Shown here one piece after another: positions 302-18,299 of a DNA stretch of 26,515 nucleotides; the stretch's first letter is position 1, and each line of letters opens with the position of its first letter. The notes beneath the pieces are model-generated. The model had not been told where the DNA came from. It worked only from the letters and a program-made list of their open reading frames with translations, and did not search any database. The stretch is from Candidatus Woesearchaeota archaeon (GTDB lineage Archaea > Nanobdellota > Nanobdellia > Pacearchaeales > GW2011-AR1), in the NCBI GenBank assembly GCA_964444275.1, contig CAYUGD010000002.1, positions 1-26,515 on the forward strand, written 5' to 3'. The translations under genes were made by a program, and so were the position numbers.

Positions 302-1096
302 TTAGTAACTTCGCCACAAAACCAGTTTCCCTTTTTCATCTCTCAAAAACAAAGTGTCTCCTGCGCGGGTCCAAACATAATCTTCGCCGCTCCAATACAA
401 AGATGAATCTGTGTCAGTTCCATTGCCTACAATTATTCTAACCTGCTTTTTTGGTTCAATCTGAAAATTCTGAAAAGCATATTTTTTTCTTCCTTCATCT
501 TTAATCTGCCAGCCACTCATGTCACAAATGAAAGAACATCTGTTGTAAAAAATAACTTCTTGATTTTTATAATCTAATTTTTTTAATTCAATACAGCCTG
601 CGCATTTGTCAGTTGATTTTTCGCAGATTCCAATATTTTTTTCAATACATTCTTCCCAAGCTTTTCTTAGAATTCCTTCGTTCTTCTTGTCGTCAAGTAT
701 ATAGACATTTGCAAATCCGTTTTTTACAAGTTCAACATTAACATTCTCTTTTCCAAAATGTAAAAATGCAAGAAGCCGCCCGTATTTATCATACTTTTCA
801 GCAGAACATTCAAGATTTATGGTTTTGTTAAGAACTTTATCTTCTAAGAATTTTTTTGCTTCATCAAAATAAAACTCGCCGCGTTCAGGCGCATTAATTC
901 CGAGCAGACGAACACTCTCTCCCGAATCAATGACAATTGTATCTCCATCGATAACTCTCTCGACAAAAGCAGTTTCATAGTCCAGCAAAAAATTTTCAAC
1001 AGTCCTGTCAAGAAAAGAGTAATTAATCACAAAAAGAGCTAACACAAGAAGAACGAGAATTATTATGTCTTTTCTCTTTTCCTTTGCTCCGCCCAT
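302..1096 (-). CDS. Membrane-anchored thermonuclease (SNase family) with C-terminal lamin-tail-like domain
   Basis: N-terminal hydrophobic anchor. SNase motifs VERVIDGDTI, VRLLGINAPE and DKYGRLLA. The C-terminal part (MSGWQIKDEG...GDTLFLRDEKGKLV) resembles an LTD. Confidence 0.85.
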   Translation of the reverse strand: MGGAKEKRKDIIILVLLVLALFVINYSFLDRTVENFLLDYETAFVERVIDGDTIVIDSGESVRLLGINAPERGEFYFDEAKKFLEDKVLNKTINLECSAEKYDKYGRLLAFLHFGKENVNVELVKNGFANVYILDDKKNEGILRKAWEECIEKNIGICEKSTDKCAGCIELKKLDYKNQEVIFYNRCSFICDMSGWQIKDEGRKKYAFQNFQIEPKKQVRIIVGNGTDTDSSLYWSGEDYVWTRAGDTLFLRDEKGKLVLWRSY

Positions 1097-1130: not shown

Positions 1131-2900
1131 TTATTGTTTTATTTTTCTTATCAAGTGGACTGTTGTGATGACAGCCAGCATTAGCAATATTGAGAAAATG
1201 AGCCAGATTAATATTCTCTCAATCATCCTTGGCTCTTTTTCTGGCTGACCGCTCTCTATTGCAACGCCAAAAACTTTTTCAAACTGACCAAAATATAATG
1301 ATTCGTAAAATTCGTCTTTAGGGATTTCTCTTGCTCCAATCCCACCGCCATTTACTGCATTAGATTCATCGTCCTCGTCATCATCTTCCTGCTCTGAAAT
1401 ATCTATAACTATCAAAGTATAAATCTGCTCAGCTTCATTGTCGTCGCTGTCAGTGACTCTTACATTAATATTAAAATCTGTATCTTCGTCAACCTCTGGC
1501 GCTGTCCCTGAAATTAAACCTGTCTGAGAATTAATTGAAAGCCATTCTGGTGCCTCGATTAATGAGAATTCATAAAGCCCGCTCCCGCCTTCAGCTTCCA
1601 CCTGATATTCATAAAACTCTGTCTCGTTAACCTCTGTTACCGGCGTTGAAGTTATTTCAAGTTGGTCTGGCTCACCAATATCTCTGACTGTTAAAAAATA
1701 AAACTGAGAGTCAGTTCCGCCCCAACGGCCATCCGAGACTCTGACGATTACTCTAAAACGCGTGTCTTCATCAACCTCTGGCGCTCTCCCGTAAATTAAT
1801 CCTGTCTGAGAATTAATTGAAAGCCAGTCAGGAGCAACTCTCAGGGAATACCTCAAAGGATCTCCGTCAGGGTCATAAGCTCTGACATGGTAAGTATAAA
1901 ACTCTCTTTCATCAACCTGCGTGACCGGACCCGAAGTTATGATTGGCGGATGATTCTCCTGAGGACCATCTGTGTTTCTGACTGTAATTGTAAATGTCTG
2001 CGTGTCAAAATCTTCCCCATCTGAAACCCTGACTCCAACTTCAAAATCGGTATCTGCACTAACCTCTGGCGCTGTGCCTGAAATTAACCCTGTCTGAGAA
2101 TTAATTGAAAGCCATTCTGGTGCCTGAATAAGTGAATAAGTTAATGTGTCACCGTCAGCGTCAGTAGCTTCAACATCATAAGTGTAAAACTCTAATTCAT
2201 TGATTTCTGTTACCGGCGTTGAAGTTATCTCAGGCGCGTGGTTTTCCGGTCCCTCTTCTTCAATTATTTCTATATCAGCGTCGTCTGTTGCGACATCTCC
2301 GTCAAAATCTGAAACCCTGCATACAGGATTATAATTTCCTGTCTGCGTGTAAATGTGATTCAATAAACCTGTGTCAGTTACATCCTGGAAGTTTCCGTTG
2401 CCTTCTGCGTCTATCTCAATGGTCAGGGGCTCGTTTCCGCCAGATGCTGAACACTGCAAATGAACATTTTCATCAACATAAGATTGCGAAGGAACAATTA
2501 AATTAGCGCTTGGTGTGTAGTCAGGCTCAACAGGAACAGAATTGCTTCTTGTTTGAGGGATGTCTATAAATATCACAACCCCTCCCTGATAAACAGAACC
2601 CACTGCACAAATAAGCTCATGATTCATGTATTCAGAAAGAGCAGATGCATCCAGTTCCTGGACACCTAAATAATCCCAGTTTGCTCCTATAGCATCACTT
2701 TTCCATGCTATAGTCCAAGGGGAAATATCACTCAAACTTACTTCCGCGCCGTCTACATAAATATGGCAGAATAAATCTGTTTCTCCGGCGATTGCTGTTC
2801 CAGGTGTTATCGTTGTTGTGATTTCTGGCGAAGCACTTGCGGTTATTGAAACCAACACTGCCAAAAACATTACCGGAAAAATCAAAATTTTTTTGTTCAT
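1131..2900 (-). CDS. Cell-surface protein: signal peptide, PKD-like domain, three putative-Ig (cadherin-like) repeats, C-terminal TM anchor
   Basis: Signal peptide MNKKILIFPVMFLAVLVSITASA. Three repeats of PEITSTPVT..EFYxYxVxAxDxDGD..YSL..APxWLSINSQTGLIxGxAPEV..DTxFxVxVRVxD. Acidic linker, then C-terminal hydrophobic helix followed by RKIKQ. Confidence 0.85.
   Translation of the reverse strand: MNKKILIFPVMFLAVLVSITASASPEITTTITPGTAIAGETDLFCHIYVDGAEVSLSDISPWTIAWKSDAIGANWDYLGVQELDASALSEYMNHELICAVGSVYQGGVVIFIDIPQTRSNSVPVEPDYTPSANLIVPSQSYVDENVHLQCSASGGNEPLTIEIDAEGNGNFQDVTDTGLLNHIYTQTGNYNPVCRVSDFDGDVATDDADIEIIEEEGPENHAPEITSTPVTEINELEFYTYDVEATDADGDTLTYSLIQAPEWLSINSQTGLISGTAPEVSADTDFEVGVRVSDGEDFDTQTFTITVRNTDGPQENHPPIITSGPVTQVDEREFYTYHVRAYDPDGDPLRYSLRVAPDWLSINSQTGLIYGRAPEVDEDTRFRVIVRVSDGRWGGTDSQFYFLTVRDIGEPDQLEITSTPVTEVNETEFYEYQVEAEGGSGLYEFSLIEAPEWLSINSQTGLISGTAPEVDEDTDFNINVRVTDSDDNEAEQIYTLIVIDISEQEDDDEDDESNAVNGGGIGAREIPKDEFYESLYFGQFEKVFGVAIESGQPEKEPRMIERILIWLIFSILLMLAVITTVHLIRKIKQ
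1400..2245 (-). repeat. Three tandem intragenic Ig-like repeats (~95 aa each)
   Basis: 1491-1555 and 2061-2125 match at 63/65 nt. The 26-mer cctgtctgagaattaattgaaagcca occurs at 1519, 1801 and 2089. Confidence 0.9.
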
Positions 2901-2909
2901 TTTTTATTA

Positions 2910-4604
2910 TTAAAATTTAATTCCTGCACCTACACCTATTTGATGAACTCTGTTAGTTTTCTCGCTGGCTCCTGTTCTATCTTTCCTATCGAAAGGAGCG
3001 TGATAACCTTCTTCTGTGGTGAATCCTGTTTTGATGAGGAACCTGTGCAGGTTAAGCATTGCTTCAATTTCAAATTTATCATATTCAACATTTAATTCAT
3101 CGTCTATAATTGAGGCGTTATTACCTAAAGGAACATAAACCCTGTTTCCTCTTTCACCTATGAATCTCAAAGAAACTGCACCATTATGGTAACCTAATCC
3201 AACTCTAATTGCATTTCCACTGACCATTGTTCTGATTATATCCTCCTGCTTAGCTATAAGGTCTGTTCCCTGGAATGTTTCTGAATCAAATTTTAAAGAA
3301 GCGTTTCCTTTTGAAAACTTGTATAACACTTCAGCTAAAAAATCTCCTGCATTAATTTTTCCGCCCAAACCAAGCCACTTTATCATTTCCCTGAATTCTC
3401 CTTGGGTGTTGCTTCTTAGGTTCATTAATTCATTTGAAATGGTTTCATTATCTAAAGAAACACGGCCTTCTAAACCAACGCCGCCTGCCGGACTTATACT
3501 GGCCCCTTCAAAATTAATAACGCGCGGAGTGTAAATGAAACTTCCTTCTATTTCTTTTGTTTTATTTGTATAACCATCATCATCATTTAAAAATCTTAAA
3601 TCAAATTCTGCTTTTGAGTTAGGACCGCTAAGAAAAGCGTCAAGTTCTAGACCCCCTCTTGCAGCTTTGAACCCAACAGGTTTTCCGCTTGGATTTGTCG
3701 ATTTAGCATAATTGTCAATCACTGCGCCGAGAGTTGAACCAAAATGCACGTTATGAAAAGCATCCCAGTTGTTTCTTTTTTTTGTTTTGCTGTCTGTTAT
3801 TATGTTTGGAGTTTCTTTTTCCCAATCAATCTCGTCTCCATATTCAATCTCTTCCCATTCAATTTCATCTTCATTGCTGCTTTCTTCTTTGGAATATTCT
3901 GATTCTGAACTAATGTCTGTTACATCCTTTCCATATTCTCTTCTGACTCTCCAGTAAACTTTTTCTGATTCAGGTGTTAGCTCTTTTCTTTTAATTTCAT
4001 ATTCTGCCTTTTTTATTTCTCCTGAATTGTCTGCTTTAATGTCTAGGATAATTGGAACACCATTTTTTTTACGTCCCCCTATGCTTTCACTTTTTGCAAC
4101 GATAAAATATCTCCCTAGTTCTATGTGACCGAGACTCTCTTTTTGGACGTCAAGAACTCCATCTTTAACAGCTTTTTCAAGTTTGTTCAATGAAGCCCTT
4201 TCATTATGAGGAGTTTTTTTCAAAAGAGATTGGTAATATCTTATTGTTGCTATTCTTTCTTTTTTTGACTGGGAATCTCTAGAGCTAAGATCCTTTTTTA
4301 AATAAGATATAATGCTTTTAAGTCCTTTTCTTGCATCAATGACATCATAACTAATATCTCCTCTTTTTGCGTAAAGCCCAAATTTATCATTCAAATTAAT
4401 TTTTGAATCAGAATCTAGATCAAGATTAAAAACAAAATCTTTTAGTCCTACCCCCTCTCCAGCAGTTGAAAGTTCAGAATTACTCGAATAAATCCTGTTT
4501 TGATTTACTTCCTGTGCGAACAAATTATTAGGGGCTCCAAAATAAAGTGCAGTTCCAATTTCAAAAGCACTTACTAAATCTCTAAGTGATGGTCGCCATT
4601 TCAT
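2910..4604 (-). CDS. Hypothetical exported protein with EF-hand/dockerin-like loop and beta-barrel-like C-terminal half
   Basis: Signal-like N-terminus ending NNLFA-Q. DLDSDSKINLND Ca-loop-like motif and an acidic linker. C-terminal ~280 aa are Gly/aromatic-rich alternating strands ending HQIGVGAGIKF. Confidence 0.6.
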   Translation of the reverse strand: MKWRPSLRDLVSAFEIGTALYFGAPNNLFAQEVNQNRIYSSNSELSTAGEGVGLKDFVFNLDLDSDSKINLNDKFGLYAKRGDISYDVIDARKGLKSIISYLKKDLSSRDSQSKKERIATIRYYQSLLKKTPHNERASLNKLEKAVKDGVLDVQKESLGHIELGRYFIVAKSESIGGRKKNGVPIILDIKADNSGEIKKAEYEIKRKELTPESEKVYWRVRREYGKDVTDISSESEYSKEESSNEDEIEWEEIEYGDEIDWEKETPNIITDSKTKKRNNWDAFHNVHFGSTLGAVIDNYAKSTNPSGKPVGFKAARGGLELDAFLSGPNSKAEFDLRFLNDDDGYTNKTKEIEGSFIYTPRVINFEGASISPAGGVGLEGRVSLDNETISNELMNLRSNTQGEFREMIKWLGLGGKINAGDFLAEVLYKFSKGNASLKFDSETFQGTDLIAKQEDIIRTMVSGNAIRVGLGYHNGAVSLRFIGERGNRVYVPLGNNASIIDDELNVEYDKFEIEAMLNLHRFLIKTGFTTEEGYHAPFDRKDRTGASEKTNRVHQIGVGAGIKF

Positions 4605-4753
4605 GTAATTTTGAAGAAAACCGCGGTTTATAAAGATTTATATATTTTATCACTTAGGAATTAATACAATAATGTTGTCTTTTTAGAGTTATATTCTTTT
4701 GGGATTTAATAAATACAAATTAGTTTAGAAAATTAATTTTTGAGAATATAAGT

Positions 4754-4872: not shown

Positions 4873-5002
4873 TGAGGGGGACAGGATTCGAACCTGCGTA
4901 AGGGACTAACCCACTGGATTTCTAACATAATGTTTGAAACATAGAGAATCTTCGATTCTCCTGTCTTAAGTCCAGCCCGTTTGACCACTCCGGCACCCCC
5001 TC
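4873..5002 (-). tRNA. tRNA-Leu(UAA) with 45-nt intron at 37/38 (4964-4920)
   Basis: Acceptor GAGGGGG/CCCCCUC plus A73. Anticodon arm CUGGA-CUUAAG/A-UCCAG. Long variable arm, T arm GCAGG-UUCGAAU-CCUGU, relaxed BHB. CCA not encoded. Confidence 0.92.
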
Positions 5003-8498: not shown

Positions 8499-8575
8499 AT
8501 TTTTATCTTTCCTCTTTTTTATTATCCCACCTTTCTTTTTAAAGATTGTTATGATAAAAGAGTGACCTCAAGGGA

Positions 8576-11392
8576 TTACCTCTTGGTAATAATTATTTCC
8601 CCTCTTTTATCTTTTATACTAAAGTTGATTTTGTTTTTAAAGTTTTCCTTCGTTTTGTTTTGAGCGTCTGTGAAAACCTCCAATTTTTTGGAACCAGTCC
8701 TCTCTTTTATGAAATTTTTGTTTTTCTCAAGAATCTCTCCGAGTTCCTTGCCTACGAGAATTTGTAACTCAATTCTGTCTTTTTTTTCGAGCCCGAGTTT
8801 CTTTCTGAATGTCTGGACTTTTCTTGAAACCTCGCGTGCGTAACCCTCTGCTTCAAGTTCAGGCGTGAGTTTCGTATCAAGTTCAACAGAAATTTCTTTT
8901 CCTTTTTTGAATTCTATTTTTCTAACATTCAACTGGTTGAGGATTATTTTTTCTAACTTTTTGTTTGGTTTTTCATCATGATTGATAATTGCTTTTGCAA
9001 GCGGCCATCTTAAACCAATCTTTAACCTGTCTCTTTCTGCAAGACCTTTTTCGATTATTTGGAGCGCGGTCTCAAAATCCGCCTCAAGTTTTTTGTTAAT
9101 TTTCTTTTTATCGGCTCTCGGCCACGACGACAAATGCACACTTTCTTCTTTAACAATTTTTTTCTGTTTCAAATCCTGCCAGATTTTTTCTGTTACAAAC
9201 GGAATTATTGGGGAAAGAATCTTCAGAAGTTTTGTTCTTATTTCATTCATAAGTTCGTAAACCTCACCGCTTCTTTCCCTTATAATCTGTATGTATGTCT
9301 TGCTAAAATCTTTAATTACAAACTCCTCTAATTTTTGAATCACTTCCGGAAGCCAAAATTTCTCATATCTCTTTTCTGTTTCTGAGATTAATTTATTAAG
9401 TTTAGATAAAATCCATTTGTCTTCTATCTGCGTCTTCGCTCGTCCTTTTTCAATTTGATTAACAAAATTGTTTAAGTTAACTAAGACTCTAAACACGTTC
9501 CGTATGTCTTTGAATTCTCTTTCATCGTAAGCAAAATCTTCTCCCTTGGATATTTTGGAAAAGTAGTACCTTAATCCGTCTCTCCCGTACTTTTCGATTG
9601 CGTCGCGCGGCGAGACTATGTTGTCCAGAGATTTTGACATTTTTATTTTTCCAAGGTCAAGGACCATTCCATGAACCAAAATATTTTTGAAAGGTTTTTT
9701 TCCGAATCTTATTTCAGACAAAATCAGCTGTGAGTTCCACCACCCGCGGAACTGGTCTTTTCCTTCGATGTTTAAATCCGCAGGCCAGAATTTTCTGAAG
9801 AGTTTTCCATTTTTAGAAAAATCAAGAGCAGCCCAGCTTGAAACTCCTGAATCAAACCACACATCAAGAACTTCTGGCACTCTTTTCATCCTCCCGCCAC
9901 ATTCACACTTCCAGGATATTTTATCAATTTCCGGTTTGTGCAAATCCTTAACTTTTGTCTTTGATTTTTTTTCAAGCTCTTTAGCACTTCCGACAACAAC
10001 CCTTTTCCCGCACTTATCACATTCCCATATTGGAAGAGGGGTCCCCCAGTATCTGCTTCTTGAAATCGGCCAATCAGAAATTCCTTCCAGCCAAGCTTTC
10101 ATTCTTAATTTCATGTAAGAGGGGGACCAGTTAACTCTATCATTTTCTTTTATTAACTTCTCGTGAATTTTGCTTATTTTGAAAAACCACTGCGGGACAG
10201 AAATCATAATCAAAGGAGTTTTACAACGCCAACAGATTGGGTAATCATGTTCATGTTCCTCTTTGTAAACCAAAGAATTACTTTTTTCCAAATCCTCTAT
10301 TATTTCGCTGTCAACCTCTCTTGCTTTTTTCCCTTTATATTTGCCTGCCTGCGGCGTTAATGTTCCATCTATTTCCACCAAACTTACTATGGGAAGATTC
10401 TCTTTCTGGCCTGCATCAAAATCTTCCTTCCCGCACCCGGGCGCAGTATGAACCAAACCTGTTCCCTCCTCAAGATTTACATATCTCTCGTTTAGAATAA
10501 TCCGATACATCTTTTCAGTCTCTTTAAGTTTGAGATGCTTTGAGAGGGGATTTTCGTATTTCTTATCTTTAAGCTCCTTGCCTTTGAACTCTCTTTTTAT
10601 TTTATAATCCTTGCTAACCTTTTTCATCAATTCTTTCATCCTTTCTTTTGCAATTATCCATCTTTCTCCGCAGACTTCTGCTTCAACATAATCAAACTTA
10701 GGATTAACCATCACGCCGGTGTTACTTGGAAGGGTCCACGGAGTTGTAGTCCATATAATTAAAAATTTGTCTTCATTTTTAAATTTAAATTTGACATAAA
10801 CAGAAGTGTCTTTTTGTTTTTTGTATTCGATTTCATTATAAGCTACCGCAGTTTCGCAGTGAGGGCATGCGTGAACAGGATATTTGCCGAGATACAAAAG
10901 CCCTTTTTCATTTGCTTTTTTGAAGGTGCCCCAAATTGTTTCAATGTAAGAATTTTTTAATGTTAAATAAGGATTTTCAAAGTCCATCCAAACACCAAGA
11001 TTCGCAAATTCTTCGTTCATCACGTCGATGTATTTAGTGGCAAATTTTTTGCATTCGTTCACGAATTTTTTGATGCCGTATTTTTCTATATCCTCTTTTT
11101 TTTCAAATCCGAGTTTTTTTTCAACTTTGTTTTCTATGGGTAGTCCGTGTGTGTCGTAACCCGGCCTGTCAAAAACATCTTTCCCTTGAAGTCTTTGATA
11201 TCTCATGAAAATATCTTTCAGAACTTTGTTGAGCGCAGTTCCCATGTGAATGTGCCCGGTGGCGTAAGGCGGACCATCCATCATATAAAATGTTTTTTTA
11301 CTTCCTTCATTTTTCTTTCTCGCTTTTTCCAGAATCTTCTTCTTTTTCCAGAACATCAAAATTTCTTTTTCTATTTTTTGCGCATTATACAT
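8576..11392 (-). CDS. ileS: Isoleucine--tRNA ligase (archaeal/eukaryote type)
   Basis: MDGPPYATGHIHMGTALNK, GYDTHGLPIE, CP1 WTTTPWTLPSN, DWPISRSRYWGTPLPIW, DVWFDSG, EGKDQFRGW and KMSKS. Confidence 0.97.
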   Translation of the reverse strand: MYNAQKIEKEILMFWKKKKILEKARKKNEGSKKTFYMMDGPPYATGHIHMGTALNKVLKDIFMRYQRLQGKDVFDRPGYDTHGLPIENKVEKKLGFEKKEDIEKYGIKKFVNECKKFATKYIDVMNEEFANLGVWMDFENPYLTLKNSYIETIWGTFKKANEKGLLYLGKYPVHACPHCETAVAYNEIEYKKQKDTSVYVKFKFKNEDKFLIIWTTTPWTLPSNTGVMVNPKFDYVEAEVCGERWIIAKERMKELMKKVSKDYKIKREFKGKELKDKKYENPLSKHLKLKETEKMYRIILNERYVNLEEGTGLVHTAPGCGKEDFDAGQKENLPIVSLVEIDGTLTPQAGKYKGKKAREVDSEIIEDLEKSNSLVYKEEHEHDYPICWRCKTPLIMISVPQWFFKISKIHEKLIKENDRVNWSPSYMKLRMKAWLEGISDWPISRSRYWGTPLPIWECDKCGKRVVVGSAKELEKKSKTKVKDLHKPEIDKISWKCECGGRMKRVPEVLDVWFDSGVSSWAALDFSKNGKLFRKFWPADLNIEGKDQFRGWWNSQLILSEIRFGKKPFKNILVHGMVLDLGKIKMSKSLDNIVSPRDAIEKYGRDGLRYYFSKISKGEDFAYDEREFKDIRNVFRVLVNLNNFVNQIEKGRAKTQIEDKWILSKLNKLISETEKRYEKFWLPEVIQKLEEFVIKDFSKTYIQIIRERSGEVYELMNEIRTKLLKILSPIIPFVTEKIWQDLKQKKIVKEESVHLSSWPRADKKKINKKLEADFETALQIIEKGLAERDRLKIGLRWPLAKAIINHDEKPNKKLEKIILNQLNVRKIEFKKGKEISVELDTKLTPELEAEGYAREVSRKVQTFRKKLGLEKKDRIELQILVGKELGEILEKNKNFIKERTGSKKLEVFTDAQNKTKENFKNKINFSIKDKRGEIIITKR

Positions 11393-11426
11393 TTTTAACT
11401 TAGTAGCGTTTTATATTTTTAAATTA

Positions 11427-12146
11427 TTAGTTAATTTCCTTAAAGCCTTCTAAAAATTCTTCTTCTGTAAAATGCAATTCTCCCGGGACAATTATACAAA
11501 AAGGGGATTTGATTTTCTTCTTTTTTAATTCTCCTGTTCTTCCATAATAAATTTTTGAGTCTTTATTTCCAAGCCGTGAGCACACAATTATTCTCATTAG
11601 ATTAACGCCTTTTTTTCTTGAATCCTTCTCAAGTTTTTTAATAGAATCTTCGAGATTCATTCCTATATCTACTAAGATTAAACTATGGGCCTTGATGCTC
11701 AGATTTTTCTTGACAATCTCAATATAGCTGTCTGCTTCGAAACTTGGCATACTCGCGGTTTTTCCGAATTTGTATATCTGCAGTCCGGTTTCCCCGACAG
11801 CGTCGAGAATTGAAGCGTTGTGGAGAACTCTAATTTTGATTTTTTCTTTTTTAGCTTCCTGGACAAGACTCATATGGGTCGTAGCTGTTAATGGCGAGCC
11901 GTAAACGAGCAGGACAATATCCATTTTTTTCGCTTCATCAATTATTTTACGCATGTTCTTTTCGACAAAATCTCTGTCTGCCTGGATGAATTTCTTACCT
12001 TCAAACCGACATCCCAGTTCTTTTATTTCATACGGAAAATCAACAGTGTACTTTTCAAGGTAAACTTTCCCTGCTCCGGAAATTATATCATAAGATTCTC
12101 TGCTGTAACTCTTTTCGTTCAGACCAAGACCAATTAAATAAAGCAT
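11427..12146 (-). CDS. dph5: Diphthine synthase
   Basis: MLYLIGLGL..., VYLEKYT, LVYGSPLTATTH, ETGLQIYKFGKTASMP, HSLILVDI, SPFCIIVPGELHFTEEEFL. ATG12146 is preferred over TTG12152 because a TATA-like TTAATAAA ends 22 nt upstream. Confidence 0.92.
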   Translation of the reverse strand: MLYLIGLGLNEKSYSRESYDIISGAGKVYLEKYTVDFPYEIKELGCRFEGKKFIQADRDFVEKNMRKIIDEAKKMDIVLLVYGSPLTATTHMSLVQEAKKEKIKIRVLHNASILDAVGETGLQIYKFGKTASMPSFEADSYIEIVKKNLSIKAHSLILVDIGMNLEDSIKKLEKDSRKKGVNLMRIIVCSRLGNKDSKIYYGRTGELKKKKIKSPFCIIVPGELHFTEEEFLEGFKEIN

Positions 12147-12268
12147 AGACAAAATAAAATTTAGGCGTTTATTAAGCTATCCCAAAATTTTTGAAGTCTT
12201 TTTTCAGAGACAATACAGATTTAAAAATAAAAATGATTTATTTCCTGATTGAAAAGAGGTCATGGAAT

Positions 12269-12304
12269 ATGGCTAAAAAGAAGACAAAAAAGAAAAAGAA
12301 GTAA
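12269..12304 (+). CDS. Candidate 11-aa Lys-rich micropeptide MAKKKTKKKKK
   Basis: TTTAAAAA at 12220-12227, SD GAGGT at 12256-12260, ATG12269 and TAA12302-12304, all in an otherwise empty intergenic gap. Confidence 0.35.
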   Translation: MAKKKTKKKKK

Positions 12305-12324
12305 TAATTAACCAGAAAATTTCT

Positions 12325-12585
12325 TTAATTTTTCATTCTTCCTCTTTTTCTTTCTTTCAAACTCCTACTCGTGACAATCGCAATAAAGAAAAAACTGAAC
12401 ATCAAAATATCATTTCTAATAATCAGCCCCGCCATTCCCCCAATCAAACTTAAAATTATAACTATTTTAAACCATTTTTGCCCTGGTTTTAATTCTTCTC
12501 TTGTCCATCGCGCGAGGAGATTTCCAACAGGGATTCCTAGAACAAGGAAAATTATGCCGGCCAAGATTTTGATTATTTCTTGCAT
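12325..12585 (-). CDS. Small membrane protein (about 3 TM), hypothetical
   Basis: Three hydrophobic segments and a basic C-terminus. Confidence 0.7.
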   Translation of the reverse strand: MQEIIKILAGIIFLVLGIPVGNLLARWTREELKPGQKWFKIVIILSLIGGMAGLIIRNDILMFSFFFIAIVTSRSLKERKRGRMKN

Positions 12586-12674
12586 GAATCATCTAAAAAA
12601 TCTTAGATTAAATACTTTCTGATTGGTCAGCTTAAACTAGAAAAATTTAAAAAAATTTAATTCTTAGTAAAAAA

Positions 12675-12887
12675 ATGTTTGAAAGAATAAATAAGATGAA
12701 ATCCAGGCACCAGATTTTTTTTGCAATTTTAATTTCTTTTGCCGTCATCTCGTTTTGGAGAGGTGTTTGGGGGCTGATGGACGAATATCTATTTCCGAAT
12801 AATTATGGATTAAGTCTTTGGATTTCCTTAATGCTAGGAATTGCGATTCTGATTACGACACACTACGCAACTAAAGAATTAATATAA
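12675..12887 (+). CDS. Small two-TM membrane protein, hypothetical
   Basis: Two hydrophobic helices around SFWRGVWGLMDEYLFP. TTTAAAAA (12646-12653) ends 22 nt before the ATG. Confidence 0.75.
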   Translation: MFERINKMKSRHQIFFAILISFAVISFWRGVWGLMDEYLFPNNYGLSLWISLMLGIAILITTHYATKELI

Positions 12888-12948
12888 TTCCTGTTTGCTC
12901 GAATTTCAACACAACAAATTTTAAAACTATTCCCTTCCTGTTTCAGCC

Positions 12949-13776
12949 ATGTACAAAAAATATCTCATAGTTGCGAGCAAACTTGACAAAGCAGGCGTGA
13001 ACATCGTGACTCAGCTCTCGCAGTTCAGGCAGAATCCTGTTTTAACTTCAATGAAAGATTCTCCTAATTTTGATTTTTATCTGTGTGAGAAAGACATTCT
13101 CCATAAAGAAAATTTGGATTTAGAAAAAATCAGTCAGTATGATTTTGTTATTTTTGCCTCAAAGCATGAATCAAAAAGCAAAAAGAAAACTCTTTCTGTG
13201 CACGCTCCTGGGAACTGGCGTTCTGCGGAATTGGGGGGCGAATCTGGAAAAGTGTGCAAAAGTTCTGCATTATTTTCAAAACAAATGTTAAAAAAATTAA
13301 ACAAAAACACAGGACAATATCATTTAAAAAATTACAATGTGACGATGGAAGTAACTCATCACGGGCCCCTGATTGAAAAGCCGTGCATATTTATAGAAAT
13401 CGGCTCAACAGAAAAGGAGTGGACAGATAGGAGAGCTGCGTTCGCGGTGGCAAAAACAATTTCAGAAACAATTGAAGAGTTTAAAAAAAATCCTTACAAC
13501 GAGGTTGCTGTCGCAATCGGTGGCCCGCACTATTGTCCTAACTTCAACAAAATCCAGTTAAACTCGAATGTCGCAATCTCACACATCATCCCCTCTTACG
13601 CAGTACCAATCACAGAAGAAATGATTAAAGAAGCAATTAACAAAACCGAGGAGGAAGTTGATTTTATTCTTCTTGACCGGAAAGGGTTAGGAAAATCAGA
13701 GCACAAGCAAAATCTTCTTAAAATCTTAAACAAATTTTACATCCCAAAAAAGAAAACAAGCGAGATAAAAAAGTAA
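12949..13776 (+). CDS. dtdA: D-aminoacyl-tRNA deacylase (archaeal DTD2 / COG1650)
   Basis: FASKH, LSVHAPGNW..AELGGE, MEVTHHGP, FIEIGS and IGGPHYCPNF. Confidence 0.92.
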   Translation: MYKKYLIVASKLDKAGVNIVTQLSQFRQNPVLTSMKDSPNFDFYLCEKDILHKENLDLEKISQYDFVIFASKHESKSKKKTLSVHAPGNWRSAELGGESGKVCKSSALFSKQMLKKLNKNTGQYHLKNYNVTMEVTHHGPLIEKPCIFIEIGSTEKEWTDRRAAFAVAKTISETIEEFKKNPYNEVAVAIGGPHYCPNFNKIQLNSNVAISHIIPSYAVPITEEMIKEAINKTEEEVDFILLDRKGLGKSEHKQNLLKILNKFYIPKKKTSEIKK

Positions 13777-14328
13777 TCACTTTTTCAATTCCCAAAGATT
13801 TAATTTTTCAAAGAACAATTTTCTACAACCAACTTTTTCGGACTTGTATTCAAAACTCTTAAAATCAATTTTTTCTGACAAAGAGCTCGTTATCAAAAAA
13901 ATTGTCCCTTTTTCATTTAAATATTCTTTAGCTTGTTCCAAGAATTTTTTTATTATCTCGTTTCCTTTTTTTCCGCCTGTTGTCGCTGTTCTGAAATTTT
14001 TGGGTTCTTTTTTGTTAAGTGGAAGGTAGGGCGGATTGAAAACTATGATATCAAACTTTTGCTTTGGGATTTTCTCAAACAAATCTGATTGCATGCAGTT
14101 GAAACCGAGATTTTTGCAGTGTTCAACAGATTCATAATTAATATCTGTACCAAAAATGTTTTCTTTTTTCAATCCGGCGTTCAAAGCTGTTTCAAGCTGG
14201 ATTCCAGAGCCAATTCCAATCTCAAGAAATTTAAGATTTGGATTTTTTCTTACCAAAACTGGAAGAACTTTTTTGAGGCAATCTGACATTAAATAAGAAT
14301 CTTCTACAGGTTGGTAAATCTCTGGCAT
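13777..14328 (-). CDS. HemK2/PrmC-like N5-glutamine methyltransferase (putative aRF1 MTase)
   Basis: IYQPVEDSYL, motif I LEIGIGSGI, FDIIVFNPPYLP and ATTGGKKG. The true start is ATG14328, because the track's N-terminal 26 aa overlap tRNA-Ser. Confidence 0.88.
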   Translation of the reverse strand: MPEIYQPVEDSYLMSDCLKKVLPVLVRKNPNLKFLEIGIGSGIQLETALNAGLKKENIFGTDINYESVEHCKNLGFNCMQSDLFEKIPKQKFDIIVFNPPYLPLNKKEPKNFRTATTGGKKGNEIIKKFLEQAKEYLNEKGTIFLITSSLSEKIDFKSFEYKSEKVGCRKLFFEKLNLWELKK

Positions 14329-14339
14329 CTTATAAAAAA

Positions 14340-14420
14340 CGCCGCAGGCAGGAATCGAACCTGCGCACCCCGAAGGGTCCAGATTAGCAATCTGGTGCAA
14401 TACCACTATGCGACTGCGGC
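14340..14420 (-). tRNA. tRNA-Ser(GCU), no intron
   Basis: GCCGCAG/CUGCGGC plus G73. CCAGA-UUGCUAA-UCUGG anticodon arm. Variable arm ACCC-UUCG-GGGU and T arm GCAGG-UUCGAUU-CCUGC. Confidence 0.95.
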
Positions 14421-14468
14421 TTGATTATCTTAGAGAAATTTAAGTTATAAAAGTTTCTTAACTTAGGA

Positions 14469-14595
14469 TAGCGGGAGTGGGATTTGAACCGCACGATCTC
14501 TGGGTGTCCGAAATCGAAGATTTCTAAGCAACTCAAAGTTCAGAGAACTTCGACTTTATGGGCCCAGCGAGGACTCCAGACTCCTCCATCCCGCT
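14469..14595 (-). tRNA. Initiator tRNA-Met(CAU) with 51-nt intron at 37/38 (14556-14506)
   Basis: A1:U72 pair (AGCGGGA/UCCCGCU) and three consecutive G-C pairs in the anticodon stem (CUGGG/CCCAG). Anticodon CAU, C33, T loop UUCAAAU, relaxed BHB. Confidence 0.9.
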
Positions 14596-14688
14596 GCAAT
14601 AAAATCTAAATAATTTTGCTTATAAAGTTTTCTTATTTTCACTAAAATATTAACAAATCTTTAAAAACAAACTTTCTTTTTTTTGTCA

Positions 14689-15381
14689 ATGAAAACAAAG
14701 TTAAAAGACCAGAAAACACTTCTCGGAGTTGACGACGCGGGTCGAGGACCTGTGATTGGCCCGATGGTTCTTGCAGGATGTCTGATTGATTCTAAGACGA
14801 GAGATGAATTCAAAAAAATCGGCGTGAGAGACAGCAAGCAACTTACACAAAAAAGGCGCGAGTTTCTGGAAGAAATAATCAAGAAAAAAGCAAAAGCCTT
14901 TGAGGTTGTTGTTTTAAATCCAGAGGAAATAGATAAGAGAAATAGTGAAGGGATAAAACTTAATGAAGTAGAAGGATTGGCTGCTGCGGAAATAGTTAAC
15001 AGAATAAATGACGGGAAAGAAAAAATAAAAGTGATAATAGATTGTCCCTCACCCAATAGAACCAGCTGGAGAGACTTTGTTCTTTTAAAAATAGAAAATC
15101 TCTCGAATTTAGAAATCGCCTGCGAACACAAGGCAGACAGAAATCACGTTGTTGTCGGGGCTGCTTCTATCCTGGCAAAAAGTGAGCGTGAGAGGCAGAT
15201 GGATAAGTTAAAGAAAATATATGGAAAAGATATGGGCTCGGGCTACAGCTCTGACCCCCGAACTAAAAAATTCCTCGAAAAAAACATAAAAAATCACAAC
15301 AACAAAGGGATATTCAGAAAAACCTGGAGCACATGGAAAAAAGCAAGCCACAAATCCAAACAGAAAAAGCTTTTTGAGTAA
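14689..15381 (+). CDS. rnhB: Ribonuclease HII
   Basis: GVDDAGRGPVIGPMV, GVRDSKQL, IIDCP, EHKADRNHVVVGAASILAK and GSGYSSDPRT. ATG14689 is preferred because TTTAAAAA ends 22 nt upstream. Confidence 0.95.
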   Translation: MKTKLKDQKTLLGVDDAGRGPVIGPMVLAGCLIDSKTRDEFKKIGVRDSKQLTQKRREFLEEIIKKKAKAFEVVVLNPEEIDKRNSEGIKLNEVEGLAAAEIVNRINDGKEKIKVIIDCPSPNRTSWRDFVLLKIENLSNLEIACEHKADRNHVVVGAASILAKSERERQMDKLKKIYGKDMGSGYSSDPRTKKFLEKNIKNHNNKGIFRKTWSTWKKASHKSKQKKLFE

Positions 15382-15419
15382 TTATAAATCTTTAAAAATA
15401 TCTTTTCGTTTCATTTCTC

Positions 15420-18299
15420 ATGTACATTAAAAAACTGGTGATGAAGGGTTTCAAGAGTTTTCCCAAAAAAACAGAGATTCCTTTTATGCCTGGGATAAAC
15501 GTGATTCTTGGACCTAACGGCAGCGGCAAGTCAAATATTTCAGACGCGATATGTTTTGTTCTGGGGCGACTTAGTGTAAAATCAATGCGGGTCGCAAAAG
15601 CCAAAAACCTGATTTTCATGGGAACAAAAGCAGCATCTCCTTCAAAAGAAGCAAGTGTCGAACTGGTCTTTGACAATTCTAACAAAACTTTTTCTCTTGA
15701 TAAAAAGGAAATCTCAATAAAAAGAATTGTGAGAAAGAGCGGGCAGAGCATCTATAAAATAAATGATGAGAAAAAGACAAGACAGGAAGTTCTGGCATTA
15801 CTGGCTCAGGCAGGGATAGACCCTCAAGGATTTAACATAGTCCTACAGGGCGAGATTCAAAATTTCGTAAGAATGCACTCGGAAGAAAGAAGACAAGTAA
15901 TCGAGGAAGTTTCAGGAATTTCTGTCTACGAATCGAAAAAACAAAAATCGCAGAGAGAGTTAGAGAAGACAGAAGAAAAACTTAAGTCAGTCAATTCGGT
16001 CCTCAGAGAAAGAACTTCTTATTTGAATAATCTAGAAAAAGAAAGACGGCAAGCCCTCAAATACAAAAAATTGAAGGAAGACGTAAAAAGATTGAAAGCA
16101 AGTATAATTTTTTATGGCCTCAAAAAGAAAAGAAAAGAATCCAAATTAATTAATAAAAAAATGCAGGAAAAAGATTCTGCGCTTGAGAAAACAAAAAAAT
16201 CTCTAGCAGATATTGAAACAGACATAAAAAATCTTAAGGCAAAAGCGGACAAAATTAATTCACAAATTCAGGGTTCTGCAGGCGTAGAGCAGGAGAGATT
16301 AAATCAGGAAATTGCAAATCTGCGAGCAGAACTTTCAGGAATAAATGTAAAACTCGAGAATCAGGAAACCAAACATAATAATTTATCAAAACAGAAACAA
16401 GAGCTCCGAGAAGCGATAAAAAAAGCAGAGAAGTCTATTAATGAACTGCAGAGAGAAAGTAAAGAAGCCCTGACGGAAAAGAAAAAATCGCAGGAAGTGG
16501 AAGAGAAAAAAAAGATTCTTGAAGAAATTGACGAGCAACGCAAAAAATTTTATATGACCAAGTCCAAGCTTTCATCTTTGAAAGAAAGAATCCGCGACAA
16601 AGAAATCTCTCTTAAAAATTACAATAACGAAGCCGATTCTCTTGTCCGGCAGTCAGAAGAGATTTCATTGGAAATTTTTGACCCAAAATCAAATCGGAAA
16701 AGACTAGACAAACTTAAAACTCTTTTCGCCGAGAAAAAAGAAGCCCTAAGCAGACTTTTGAAAAGAGAAATCGAACTCGAGAAGACTACTTCTGTCAATG
16801 AGTCCGAAATAGAAAATCATAAAAAAATCCTTGGGAAAGTTTCAAAGCTTGACGTCTGTCCTGTTTGCAAAAGTAAGATAACACCCGAACATTTGAAAGA
16901 AATAGAAAATGAATTTTTACCAAAGATAAAAAAACTTGAGAAAGAGGTGCAGGATTCTGACAGGGAATTGAAAATAATTTATCAAAAGAAAGAAATACTT
17001 ACTAAGGACATAGAGCAACTTACTGAGAAGATTTCCAGAACAGAGTCGGATATAAGTAAAATAAAAAGTATGAATGAAAAGAAATCGCAGATAAAAAAAC
17101 TTAAGGAAAAATCCGAGGAGGTTGAGAAAGAGTTGGTAGAGTTGATTAAGAAAAGAGAAAAGTTTGAAAAAATTCTTGAAGCCAGTTCAAACATTGAAAC
17201 AAAGTACGAGACTCTAAAAATTGAGATTCAGGAGATTTCTTCAAGGACAAAAGAGAACTTAAGTTCAGAGGTTGATTTCAAGAAAAGGGAGTTTGAGCGT
17301 TTGAAAATTTCTTTGAAACAGGCGGTGATAGACGACGAGGAAGTGAAAGAAGAGGTTGAATCTTTGAAGAAAATTGTTGAGGAGAAAGAGAAAGCACTAA
17401 CGGAAAAGAGGAGGCAGGAGGAAATTCTCAGCCAGAAATTTAAGAAGTTCATTTCTGAGAGAGATTCTATTTATTCCCAGGTGAGAGAAAAGGAATCCGA
17501 GGTCTTGGAACAACAGCACAAAATTCGTATGACAGAAGATGAAATTAACGAGTTGAAGATAGATAGGGCGAGAGTTGACGCAGAGACAGAGAACCTTGAG
17601 ACAGAGATGCTTGAATTTGAAGATGTTAGAGATAAGATAATTAAGAAAAAAAGCAAAGAGTCTCTTTCCGAAAAGCTTGCCAAAGTTCAGGATATTCTTT
17701 CAAGAATCGGGAGCGTGAACCTCCGCTCGCTGGAAGTTTATGACTCTATAAAAAAAGAATACGATTCAATAAAAGAAAAGGCAGAGATAATTTCCAAGGA
17801 AAAAGAAGGCATTTTGAAAATAATTGAGGAGATTGACAAAAAGAAGAAGAGGGCCTTCCTTAAAACGATGAAAACTTTGAACGAACTTTTCTCAAGGAAC
17901 TTTTCGCAATTAAGTATCAAAGGGCATGTTTTTCTTGAGCTTGAGAACAAGAAGGACCCTTTTGAACATGGCTCAGGCGTTCAGATAATTGTTAAAACAG
18001 GCCACGGAAAATATTTTGATGTGAAATCTCTGTCCGGCGGCGAGCAGACACTTGTGGCTCTCTCACTCATTTTTGCAATTCAGGAATACAGCCCTTATTA
18101 CTTTTATCTGCTCGACGAAATTGACGCAGCTCTTGACAAGAAAAACTCTGAGCGCCTCGCGGGTTTGTTAAATAAATATATGCAAAAAGGCCAATACATA
18201 GTTATCACACACAATGACGAAATAATCTCAAAAGCCACGAACCTTTACGGAATAAGCATGCACGACGGCATAAGCAAGATTGTCAGCTTGAAGGTTTGA
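15420..18299 (+). CDS. smc: Smc-family chromosome segregation ATPase, atypical: short, no hinge, central CPVC
   Basis: Smc-type head: YIKKLVMKGFKSF, Walker A GPNGSGKSN, DAICFVLG, Q-loop IVLQGEI, IGSVNLRS, signature LSGGEQ and Walker B/D-loop YLLDEIDAALD. Long coiled coils, with CPVC at residues 480-483 of 959. Confidence 0.85.
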   Translation: MYIKKLVMKGFKSFPKKTEIPFMPGINVILGPNGSGKSNISDAICFVLGRLSVKSMRVAKAKNLIFMGTKAASPSKEASVELVFDNSNKTFSLDKKEISIKRIVRKSGQSIYKINDEKKTRQEVLALLAQAGIDPQGFNIVLQGEIQNFVRMHSEERRQVIEEVSGISVYESKKQKSQRELEKTEEKLKSVNSVLRERTSYLNNLEKERRQALKYKKLKEDVKRLKASIIFYGLKKKRKESKLINKKMQEKDSALEKTKKSLADIETDIKNLKAKADKINSQIQGSAGVEQERLNQEIANLRAELSGINVKLENQETKHNNLSKQKQELREAIKKAEKSINELQRESKEALTEKKKSQEVEEKKKILEEIDEQRKKFYMTKSKLSSLKERIRDKEISLKNYNNEADSLVRQSEEISLEIFDPKSNRKRLDKLKTLFAEKKEALSRLLKREIELEKTTSVNESEIENHKKILGKVSKLDVCPVCKSKITPEHLKEIENEFLPKIKKLEKEVQDSDRELKIIYQKKEILTKDIEQLTEKISRTESDISKIKSMNEKKSQIKKLKEKSEEVEKELVELIKKREKFEKILEASSNIETKYETLKIEIQEISSRTKENLSSEVDFKKREFERLKISLKQAVIDDEEVKEEVESLKKIVEEKEKALTEKRRQEEILSQKFKKFISERDSIYSQVREKESEVLEQQHKIRMTEDEINELKIDRARVDAETENLETEMLEFEDVRDKIIKKKSKESLSEKLAKVQDILSRIGSVNLRSLEVYDSIKKEYDSIKEKAEIISKEKEGILKIIEEIDKKKKRAFLKTMKTLNELFSRNFSQLSIKGHVFLELENKKDPFEHGSGVQIIVKTGHGKYFDVKSLSGGEQTLVALSLIFAIQEYSPYYFYLLDEIDAALDKKNSERLAGLLNKYMQKGQYIVITHNDEIISKATNLYGISMHDGISKIVSLKV

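Follow-up and report, generated by a model that had tools for sequence, protein, structure and literature searches.

Genes and features of the locus

The window analysed here is a stretch of DNA of 26,515 nucleotides, positions 1 to 26,515 of contig CAYUGD010000002.1 of a Candidatus Woesearchaeota archaeon (GenBank assembly GCA_964444275.1, genome G000 below, 0.36 Mb, 82% completeness). Its reverse strand carries a gene for a protein of 564 amino acids, which a sequence-only reading of the window had singled out as having an outer-membrane-type beta-barrel signature in an apparent archaeon. The archaeal origin was confirmed by markers in the window, including genes for TrmB, the archaeal D-aminoacyl-tRNA deacylase (PF04414) and class I aminoacyl-tRNA synthetases, and an intron-bearing tRNA. 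The features of the gene and of the protein that it encodes, named the window protein below, are as follows.

2910..4604, reverse strand: open reading frame (ORF) of the predicted exported modular surface protein, 564 amino acids plus stop, complete, with orthologues on independent contigs
4627..4634, reverse strand: TATA box TTTATAAA, read from the sequence, ending 22 nt 5' of the ATG
4512..4604, reverse strand: weak signal-like N-terminus, residues 1-31, ending LFA/QE, hydrophobicity maximum 1.35
4005..4511, reverse strand: conserved alpha/beta N-domain (the head), residues 32-200, the family marker, found in 55 clusters, AlphaFold2 (AF2) predicted local distance difference test (pLDDT) >90
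3753..4004, reverse strand: helix followed by a disordered Ser/Glu-rich linker, residues 201-284, from AF2 and the alignment
2913..3752, reverse strand: Gly-rich all-beta C-terminal module (the C-module), residues 285-564, about 12-14 amphipathic strands, from the dyad pattern and AF2 hairpins
2913..2939, reverse strand: last strand IGVGAGIKF, beta-signal-like, hydrophobic at positions 1, 3, 5, 7 and 9 from the C-terminus, with a terminal Phe

The gene is under purifying selection, with a dN/dS of 0.22-0.27 against the related protein P0002, similar in the N-domain and the C-module (two comparisons). Judged by its sequence, the TTTATAAA box with its 22-nt spacing to the ATG is an archaeal promoter giving a leaderless mRNA, and the gene order arginyl-tRNA synthetase (ArgRS), 564-amino-acid gene, He_PIG gene and SNase gene recurs on contigs of several other samples, a distant relative included. 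Thus, the TATA box, the dN/dS and the gene order recurring in independent samples show the gene to be native and functional and not the product of a chimeric assembly. Chimerism, which the sequence-only reading had considered, and contamination were ruled out by the recurring gene order and the archaeal neighbours. The same reading had also suggested a horizontally acquired outer-membrane protein (OMP); the breadth of the family, its composition and the native promoter of the gene make a recent transfer from bacteria unlikely. Directly upstream of the gene lies a 130-nt tRNA gene (4873-5002, reverse strand; Rfam 47 bits), presumably intron-bearing, which was missed by ARAGORN. The public sequencing runs in which the gene was found are two salt-marsh DNA metagenomes only, with no RNA run among them.

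The C-terminal module of the window protein

All strands quoted in the sequence-only reading (GGLELDAFL, KAEFDLRF, EIEGSFIY, WLGLGGKIN, FLAEVLYKF, IRVGLGY, KFEIEAMLN and FLIKTGF) are present in the translation, as is the terminal IGVGAGIKF with Phe as the last residue. The alternating hydrophobicity on which that reading relied exceeds chance: of the last 280 residues, 119 fall within windows of strict hydrophobic/non-hydrophobic dyads, compared with 57 +/- 20 in shuffled sequences, and the observed value was reached in just two of 2000 shuffles. Glycine makes up 12% of the same 280 residues, and the strand pattern is held column by column in relatives of just 31-34% identity. In the AF2 model, which was run on a 58-sequence alignment, residues 292-563 form about 11 strands of 12-18 residues each, arranged in successive hairpins.

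A C-module of the type found in the window protein (window-type below) was detected in only seven clusters (P0001-5, P0025 and P0062), of which P0025 and P0062 were the only ones gained by region-restricted and profile searches for relatives of the module; a terminal aromatic residue (Phe or Tyr) is present in 7/7 proteins carrying it. The window-type C-module is joined to three different N-regions, namely the family head, a different globular domain in P0003-5 and, in P0025 and P0062, a coiled coil, while a genome of the same genus (locus L011) encodes a family-type barrel behind yet another N-region; heads and tails thus behave as interchangeable modules. In proteins with the family head, the window-type C-module fills the slot in which the remaining family members have an OmpA/OmpX-like barrel. 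Searches of G000 by tblastn and with three hidden Markov models, a check that the sequence-only reading had proposed, gave no paralogues or further barrel-type ORFs.

The head-domain family and its barrels

The head-domain family, defined by the N-domain of P0002 and P0006-P0060, was collected by exhaustive phmmer searches and comprises 55 clusters, nearly all of which have only the N-domain in common; among the 55 listed clusters, 51 are N-domain matches, with phmmer E-values from 2e-46 (P0006) down to 1e-4. The clusters were seen here only in metagenome-assembled genomes of Nanoarchaeota type, the named records being Nanoarchaeota, Nanoarchaeia or Woesearchaeota, and the distribution is patchy (7/401 genomes of the phylum sample).

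Regarding the tails of these proteins, the Pfam tally over 58 members (E<=0.1) gave matches to the OMP family PF13505 (OMP_b-brl) in 19, with a best E-value of 1e-9. The sequence matches of the family profile in the PDB, all of them weak, were only to OmpX/Ail, designed transmembrane barrels, EspP, CarO and OprF. The clearest case is P0014, the member encoded in the same operon at locus L005, for which AF2 gives a signal peptide, the head, a helix of 97 residues and a barrel with pLDDT of about 90 or more over residues 333-516. Foldseek searches with this model returned 68 PDB matches at E<=1e-3, the best 50 of which are all bacterial outer-membrane barrels, with a probability of 1.00 for OmpA, Ail, OmpX, OprF-N, CarO and KdgM; since the target TM-scores are 0.4-0.5 and the root-mean-square deviations large, this result denotes the same fold class and no tight superposition. 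As in small outer-membrane barrels, the modelled strands of P0014 have aliphatic and aromatic residues on one face and Gly, Ser and charged residues on the other. Two hairpins of the model far outreach the neighbouring strands, resembling the protruding sheet of OmpX and Ail, and these hairpins bear the best-conserved motifs of the domain, LIGPGTYKxRTDE and STIxxERN. The P0014 model and the profile matches together strongly indicate that the tails of most family members are OmpA/OmpX/Ail-like barrels.

A typical family C-terminus reads ...SFNRVGKKNSGRINLRYRF. In the tally of C-terminal residues over 60 members, a terminal Phe was found in 33/60, compared with 8% of the G000 ORFs of at least 150 amino acids, and Lys or Arg was the last residue in 21/60. 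The latter belong to a subtype with a Lys/Arg-rich tail past the last barrel strand, for example ...GLNIKLNKRPGKNNK, which is found in P0007-P0009, P0011, P0013, P0016-18, P0020-21, P0029 and others and is homologous to the Phe-ending barrel subtype (hhalign 93%, E 2e-7). Such tails are incompatible with a strict C-terminal signal of the type read by the beta-barrel assembly machinery (BAM). The terminal aromatic that the sequence-only reading had taken as a mark of BAM insertion is real as a beta-signal-like end of the window protein; the BAM dependence implied by it is weakened by a family of which a third is Lys/Arg-tailed and by genomes in which no BamA was found.

Stand-alone OMP_b-brl proteins of 205-266 amino acids were also observed in the same GTDB family (L021, 7856-8656, reverse strand; L022, 5402-6019, reverse strand), scoring 38.2 and 34.7 bits against a Pfam cut-off of 28.7; their genes lie on archaeal contigs, adjoining those for SRP54/Bud32 and DNA polymerase D. 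Within one genus, three genomes (including G281 with L011 and G368 with L007/L008) have three architectures of barrel protein, with differing N-regions and tail types, and the upstream neighbours of the barrel gene also differ among them. The three architectures within one genus suggest a fast turnover of modules at a host-contact locus.

N-terminus, head and linker

The signal-like peptide noted in the sequence-only reading is marginal: its best 10-residue Kyte-Doolittle window reaches 1.35, where the family median is 2.1, and the hydrophobic core is broken by one Asp and one Glu. The cleavage-type A-x-A/Q motif of the family is retained as LFA/QE. The relatives mostly have clean signal peptides ending AYAQ.

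The head carries the family motifs NRIYS, GEGVxLKDFV, LYAKxGDISY and SLNxLEKAVxDGVIDV over the region of about residues 32-200, to which the window protein is homologous. Foldseek searches of the AF2 model of the window protein against the PDB and BFVD gave nothing at E<=0.001, the head included, so that the head has no recognisable fold relative in these databases. Only Gly49 and Tyr166 are nearly invariant across the family, which argues for a binding or structural rather than a catalytic role. The calcium loop proposed in the sequence-only reading is present as the stretch DLDSDSKINLND at residues 62-73, a 12-residue pattern resembling the DxDxDG of EF-hands and dockerins. Its positions 1 and 3, the first two Asp, are not kept in the closest relatives (P0002 has YLNSDSRINLND), the family consensus at this stretch is LNPDSxINLD, and AF2 places it in a beta-strand; conservation thus lends the calcium-loop reading no support.

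Between head and tail, AF2 gives a short helix followed by disorder for residues of about 208-290. The acidic linker described in the sequence-only reading is found at residues of about 233-262 (...EDEIEWEEIEYGDEIDWEKE), and all seven carriers of the window-type C-module (7/7) have kept its Trp core, EWEE..EI.W with PN(I/V)IT.SKT after it. Where the window protein has this linker, its relatives form a helix some 100 residues long. In P0014 (L005, 3976-5526), residues 231-327 are modelled as the single helix of about 97 residues that links head and barrel; it is composed of loosely repeated (R/K)DS(I/T)A(K/R) motifs, which can be aligned in many of the members, and may be a coiled-coil stalk.

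Omp85 and membrane insertion

Barrels of the OmpA/OmpX class count as textbook markers of the outer membranes of bacteria, mitochondria and plastids; an Omp85 insertase is thought necessary for them, and archaea are, to our knowledge, not known to make barrels of outer-membrane type. The genome search for an Omp85/BamA homologue that the sequence-only reading had proposed was extended from G000 to 11 other barrel-carrying genomes, eight of the latter being at least 90% complete. PF01103 was detected in 0/12 of these genomes, G000 included, and in 7/7 of the diderm controls. No account of barrels of the OMP type in DPANN archaea turned up in full-text searches of the literature.

The conserved partner gene and the nuclease

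Two further genes follow the barrel-family gene in the window.

1131..2900, reverse strand: Ig-repeat partner, 589 amino acids, signal peptide, PKD/He_PIG cadherin-like repeats and C-terminal transmembrane helix; 9 nt downstream of the 564-amino-acid gene
302..1096, reverse strand: SNase-type nuclease with lamin-tail domain, 264 amino acids, membrane-anchored or secreted; third gene of the cluster

Eleven loci, nine of them distinct (L001-L003 have an identical gene), were examined for this pairing, and the He_PIG/PKD Ig-repeat gene directly follows in 11/11 (the window, L001-3, L004, L005, L007, L011, L023, L024 and L025). In one locus the stop codon of the first gene overlaps the start codon of the second, and in three others these codons are separated by 1-2 nt. 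The SNase gene is kept in L001-L003 and in the distant L005 and is absent in L007. A small ORF of 116-146 amino acids was observed between the barrel and He_PIG genes, with 1-2 nt spacing, in L004 (1626-2066) and L005 (5528-5878); it has no Pfam match and does not occur in the window, where there is a 9-nt gap.

Interpretation and alternative explanations

Regarding the window protein itself, the best explanation, to which we give about an even chance of being right, is that its tail is an enlarged OMP-type barrel that manages without BAM and serves as the membrane anchor of a modular surface protein paired with the He_PIG protein. The protein would be exported, with a non-enzymatic head, an acidic linker and a C-terminal beta-module that replaces the OmpA/OmpX/Ail-like barrel of the family; this module would be an outer-membrane-type barrel enlarged to roughly 12 strands, assembling without BAM, possibly inserting spontaneously, and acting as a lipid-embedded anchor. 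The He_PIG protein would be held in the archaeon's own membrane via its C-terminal helix and the head would bind it physically, resulting in a tether in the order He_PIG in the symbiont membrane, head, linker or stalk, and barrel in the membrane of a partner (host) cell, with the adjacent surface nuclease harvesting nucleic acids released at the contact site. The tether is the most economical model because, of the two proteins, only the He_PIG partner has a helical anchor, the barrel protein being left with none once its signal is cleaved off. Closure of a barrel in this copy, its residence in a membrane, the choice of membrane and the contact with He_PIG are all steps that we infer, and they differ in strength: we lean somewhat towards a closed OMP-like barrel, consider the chances evenly balanced on whether the tail is membrane-embedded, and regard insertion in the membrane of a partner cell as doubtful. 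Comparably tentative is the wider proposal that BAM-free DPANN barrels are exported on a head and stalk into the host membrane as a self-supplied anchor or receptor for the archaeon's own Ig-repeat adhesin, with a nuclease alongside, the module of about 12 strands in the window protein being a second, enlarged type.

Several results weigh against a membrane barrel or against its proposed destination. The AF2 model has a pLDDT of 25-35 for residues 290-460 and 59-74 for residues 460-564, and Foldseek with this low-confidence model gave no significant match. The C-module and the whole protein had no Pfam match (even at E<=10) and no NCBIfam or PDB sequence match, and a profile of close homologues fared likewise. 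The alignment of window-type C-modules with the barrel subtypes of the family by hhalign was at first promising, with probabilities of 51-74% (42-74% over all comparisons with one of the subtypes), and was dropped as evidence for a barrel after a reversed-sequence control between two barrel subtypes gave 43% (reversed controls with the window-type tail gave <1%), so that homology of the window-type tail to the family barrels is unproven. Charged residues are abundant in the C-module, the signal peptide is weak (1.35 against 2.1), and a terminal Phe is no strict requirement, since the C-terminus is a Lys/Arg tail in a third of the family. We know of no archaeal outer membrane or barrel-insertion machinery. 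A search of G000 for a peptidoglycan hydrolase found none and hence gave no pointer to a bacterial host; the membrane location, the host and the contact with He_PIG are proposals.

Alternatively, the C-module may be a soluble or wall-associated all-beta domain (a sandwich stack, a solenoid or an oligomerising sheet) that took the place of the family barrel in this small subgroup, making the protein a secreted or surface adhesin or scaffold with no lipid contact, an explanation that we rate as rather unlikely. It would account for the lack of detectable homology to any OMP family, with hhalign at control level, for the plentiful charged residues, and for AF2 being unconfident for this C-module yet confident for the P0014 barrel; moreover, soluble beta-sheets with one buried face alternate too. 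However, heads and tails are shuffled within the family and the C-module stands where other members have a bona fide barrel, its terminal aromatic and Gly-rich polar face are kept, its dyad pattern persists at 31% identity, and modelled strands of 12-18 residues in successive hairpins are atypical of sandwiches. If the tail is a barrel, it could alternatively sit in the archaeon's own envelope, either in the cytoplasmic membrane, entered from the outside, or in some outer lipid layer that has gone unrecognised, as an anchor or small channel of the cell's own surface apparatus. Bacterial barrels of this class (OmpA, Ail, OmpX) anchor surface structures in the membrane of the producer, and the conserved protruding hairpin motifs of P0014 would fit an invariant partner of the cell's own better than a variable host. 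This placement is nevertheless quite improbable, as neither Omp85 nor another known insertase is present, no double membrane has been found for the Pacearchaeota/Woesearchaeota group in the searchable literature, insertion in the cell's own cytoplasmic membrane would put long charged hairpins into the cytoplasm, and the He_PIG partner is already helically anchored.

A secreted pore-former or porin-like channel, opening the host membrane for nucleotide uptake via the nuclease and transporters, is very unlikely. A barrel of about 12 strands would be able to conduct solutes and the operon also contains a nuclease gene; a predatory way of life involving pore-forming toxins has been suggested for certain Woesearchaeota (PMC9723730), and the porin-like PopA of Bdellovibrio has been reported to enter prey membranes (PMC12228718). 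Against these points, no similarity to any pore-forming-toxin family was found, most family members are 8-stranded, such barrels in bacteria being closed anchors and not channels, and the conserved head and stalk favour tethering over free diffusion. Thus, the barrel proposed in the sequence-only reading is strongly supported for the family, through PF13505 and the P0014 model, and is plausible and unproven, on circumstantial grounds, for the tail of the window protein; the structure prediction and Foldseek comparison that it had called for gave outer-membrane-barrel matches for the barrel of the relative P0014 and, for the window C-module, low pLDDT and no match.

Comparison with known systems

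Relatives with the same N-domain and operon slot match the family or fold of the small bacterial outer-membrane barrels OmpA (1BXW, 1QJP), OmpX (1QJ9), Ail (3QRA) and OprF-N (4RLC) and of PF13505. They share with these the alternating hydrophobic and Gly/polar strands, the terminal Phe and protruding hairpins of OmpX/Ail type, and differ in their archaeal host, which has no Omp85/BAM and no known outer membrane, in the Lys/Arg tail after the last strand in a third of the archaeal members, and in the placement of the barrel, which is C-terminal to a head and stalk in the archaea whereas the bacterial counterpart is N-terminal to a periplasmic domain. The C-module of the window protein is about 100 residues longer than the small outer-membrane barrels and has no detectable homology to them.

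Trimeric autotransporters of the YadA type have the same order of head, long helix (residues 231-327 in P0014) and C-terminal barrel, and a similarly adhesin-like context. In contrast to YadA, in which each chain provides a 4-strand share of a trimeric barrel, a single archaeal chain makes up the whole barrel in the P0014 model; the YadA_anchor family (PF03895) was matched by just 1/58 members, at E 0.089, and the window protein has a disordered acidic linker and no helix at this place. The beta pore-forming toxin families (aerolysin, leukocidin/hemolysin and MACPF) had no Pfam match in the 58 members and none among the listed Foldseek matches.

Regarding proteins delivered to other cells, PopA, a porin-like OMP of the predator Bdellovibrio, has been reported in prey membranes, and a possible distant relative in the DPANN group Altiarchaeales was mentioned in the same study (PMC12228718). 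The archaeal family resembles PopA in being an OMP-class barrel protein of a small cell living on other cells, with the partner membrane as its proposed destination; unlike PopA, which comes from a diderm with BAM and to which there is no sequence or structure match, the archaeal proteins are only proposed to be transferred. Solely as an analogy, the intimin-Tir pair of enteropathogenic Escherichia coli also consists of an Ig-repeat adhesin and a second protein placed in the membrane of the partner cell. The comparison is wholly inferential: the roles would be reversed, with the Ig-repeat protein being the helically anchored one, and there is neither an injection system nor homology.

Some Woesearchaeota have been suggested to live as predators on bacteria (PMC9723730), and whether DPANN archaea have bacterial hosts is an open question (PMC8204110). 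A conserved and selected family of OmpA/OmpX-class barrels in archaea with no outer membrane or Omp85, in which an adhesin-like partner invariably accompanies the barrel and a nuclease frequently does, raises the questions of which membrane is the target and by which route the barrel is inserted. If the target were a host cell, the family would provide a handle on how uncultured Pace- and Woesearchaeota attach and feed and on whether their partners are bacteria, and would be a natural case of BAM-independent barrel insertion. The fold class is known; its occurrence in archaea that lack BAM is new, as are the architecture of head, stalk and barrel, the obligatory pairing with an Ig-repeat protein and the larger second type of tail. 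The window gene itself contributes this second, larger tail type and a clear case of head and tail shuffling.

Other observations at related loci

At L005, the cluster of barrel, He_PIG and SNase genes is followed (8524-15526) by transposase genes (rve and DDE_Tnp_1) and, beyond these, by genes for a PD-(D/E)XK nuclease, a PLD-like protein and a ResIII/helicase, a region that resembles a mobile or defence island. Two Woesearchaeota loci with the window-type tail, L024 (9480-16912) and L025 (9393-16805), encode a PKD protein of 839 amino acids and two large FixG_C/NPCBM-like surface proteins, and their clusters end in an Amidase_3 peptidoglycan amidase gene rather than the SNase gene. Both clusters lie downstream of AglB (STT3) and glycosyltransferase genes, a surface-glycosylation neighbourhood, and the gene content around them hints at a bacterial target.

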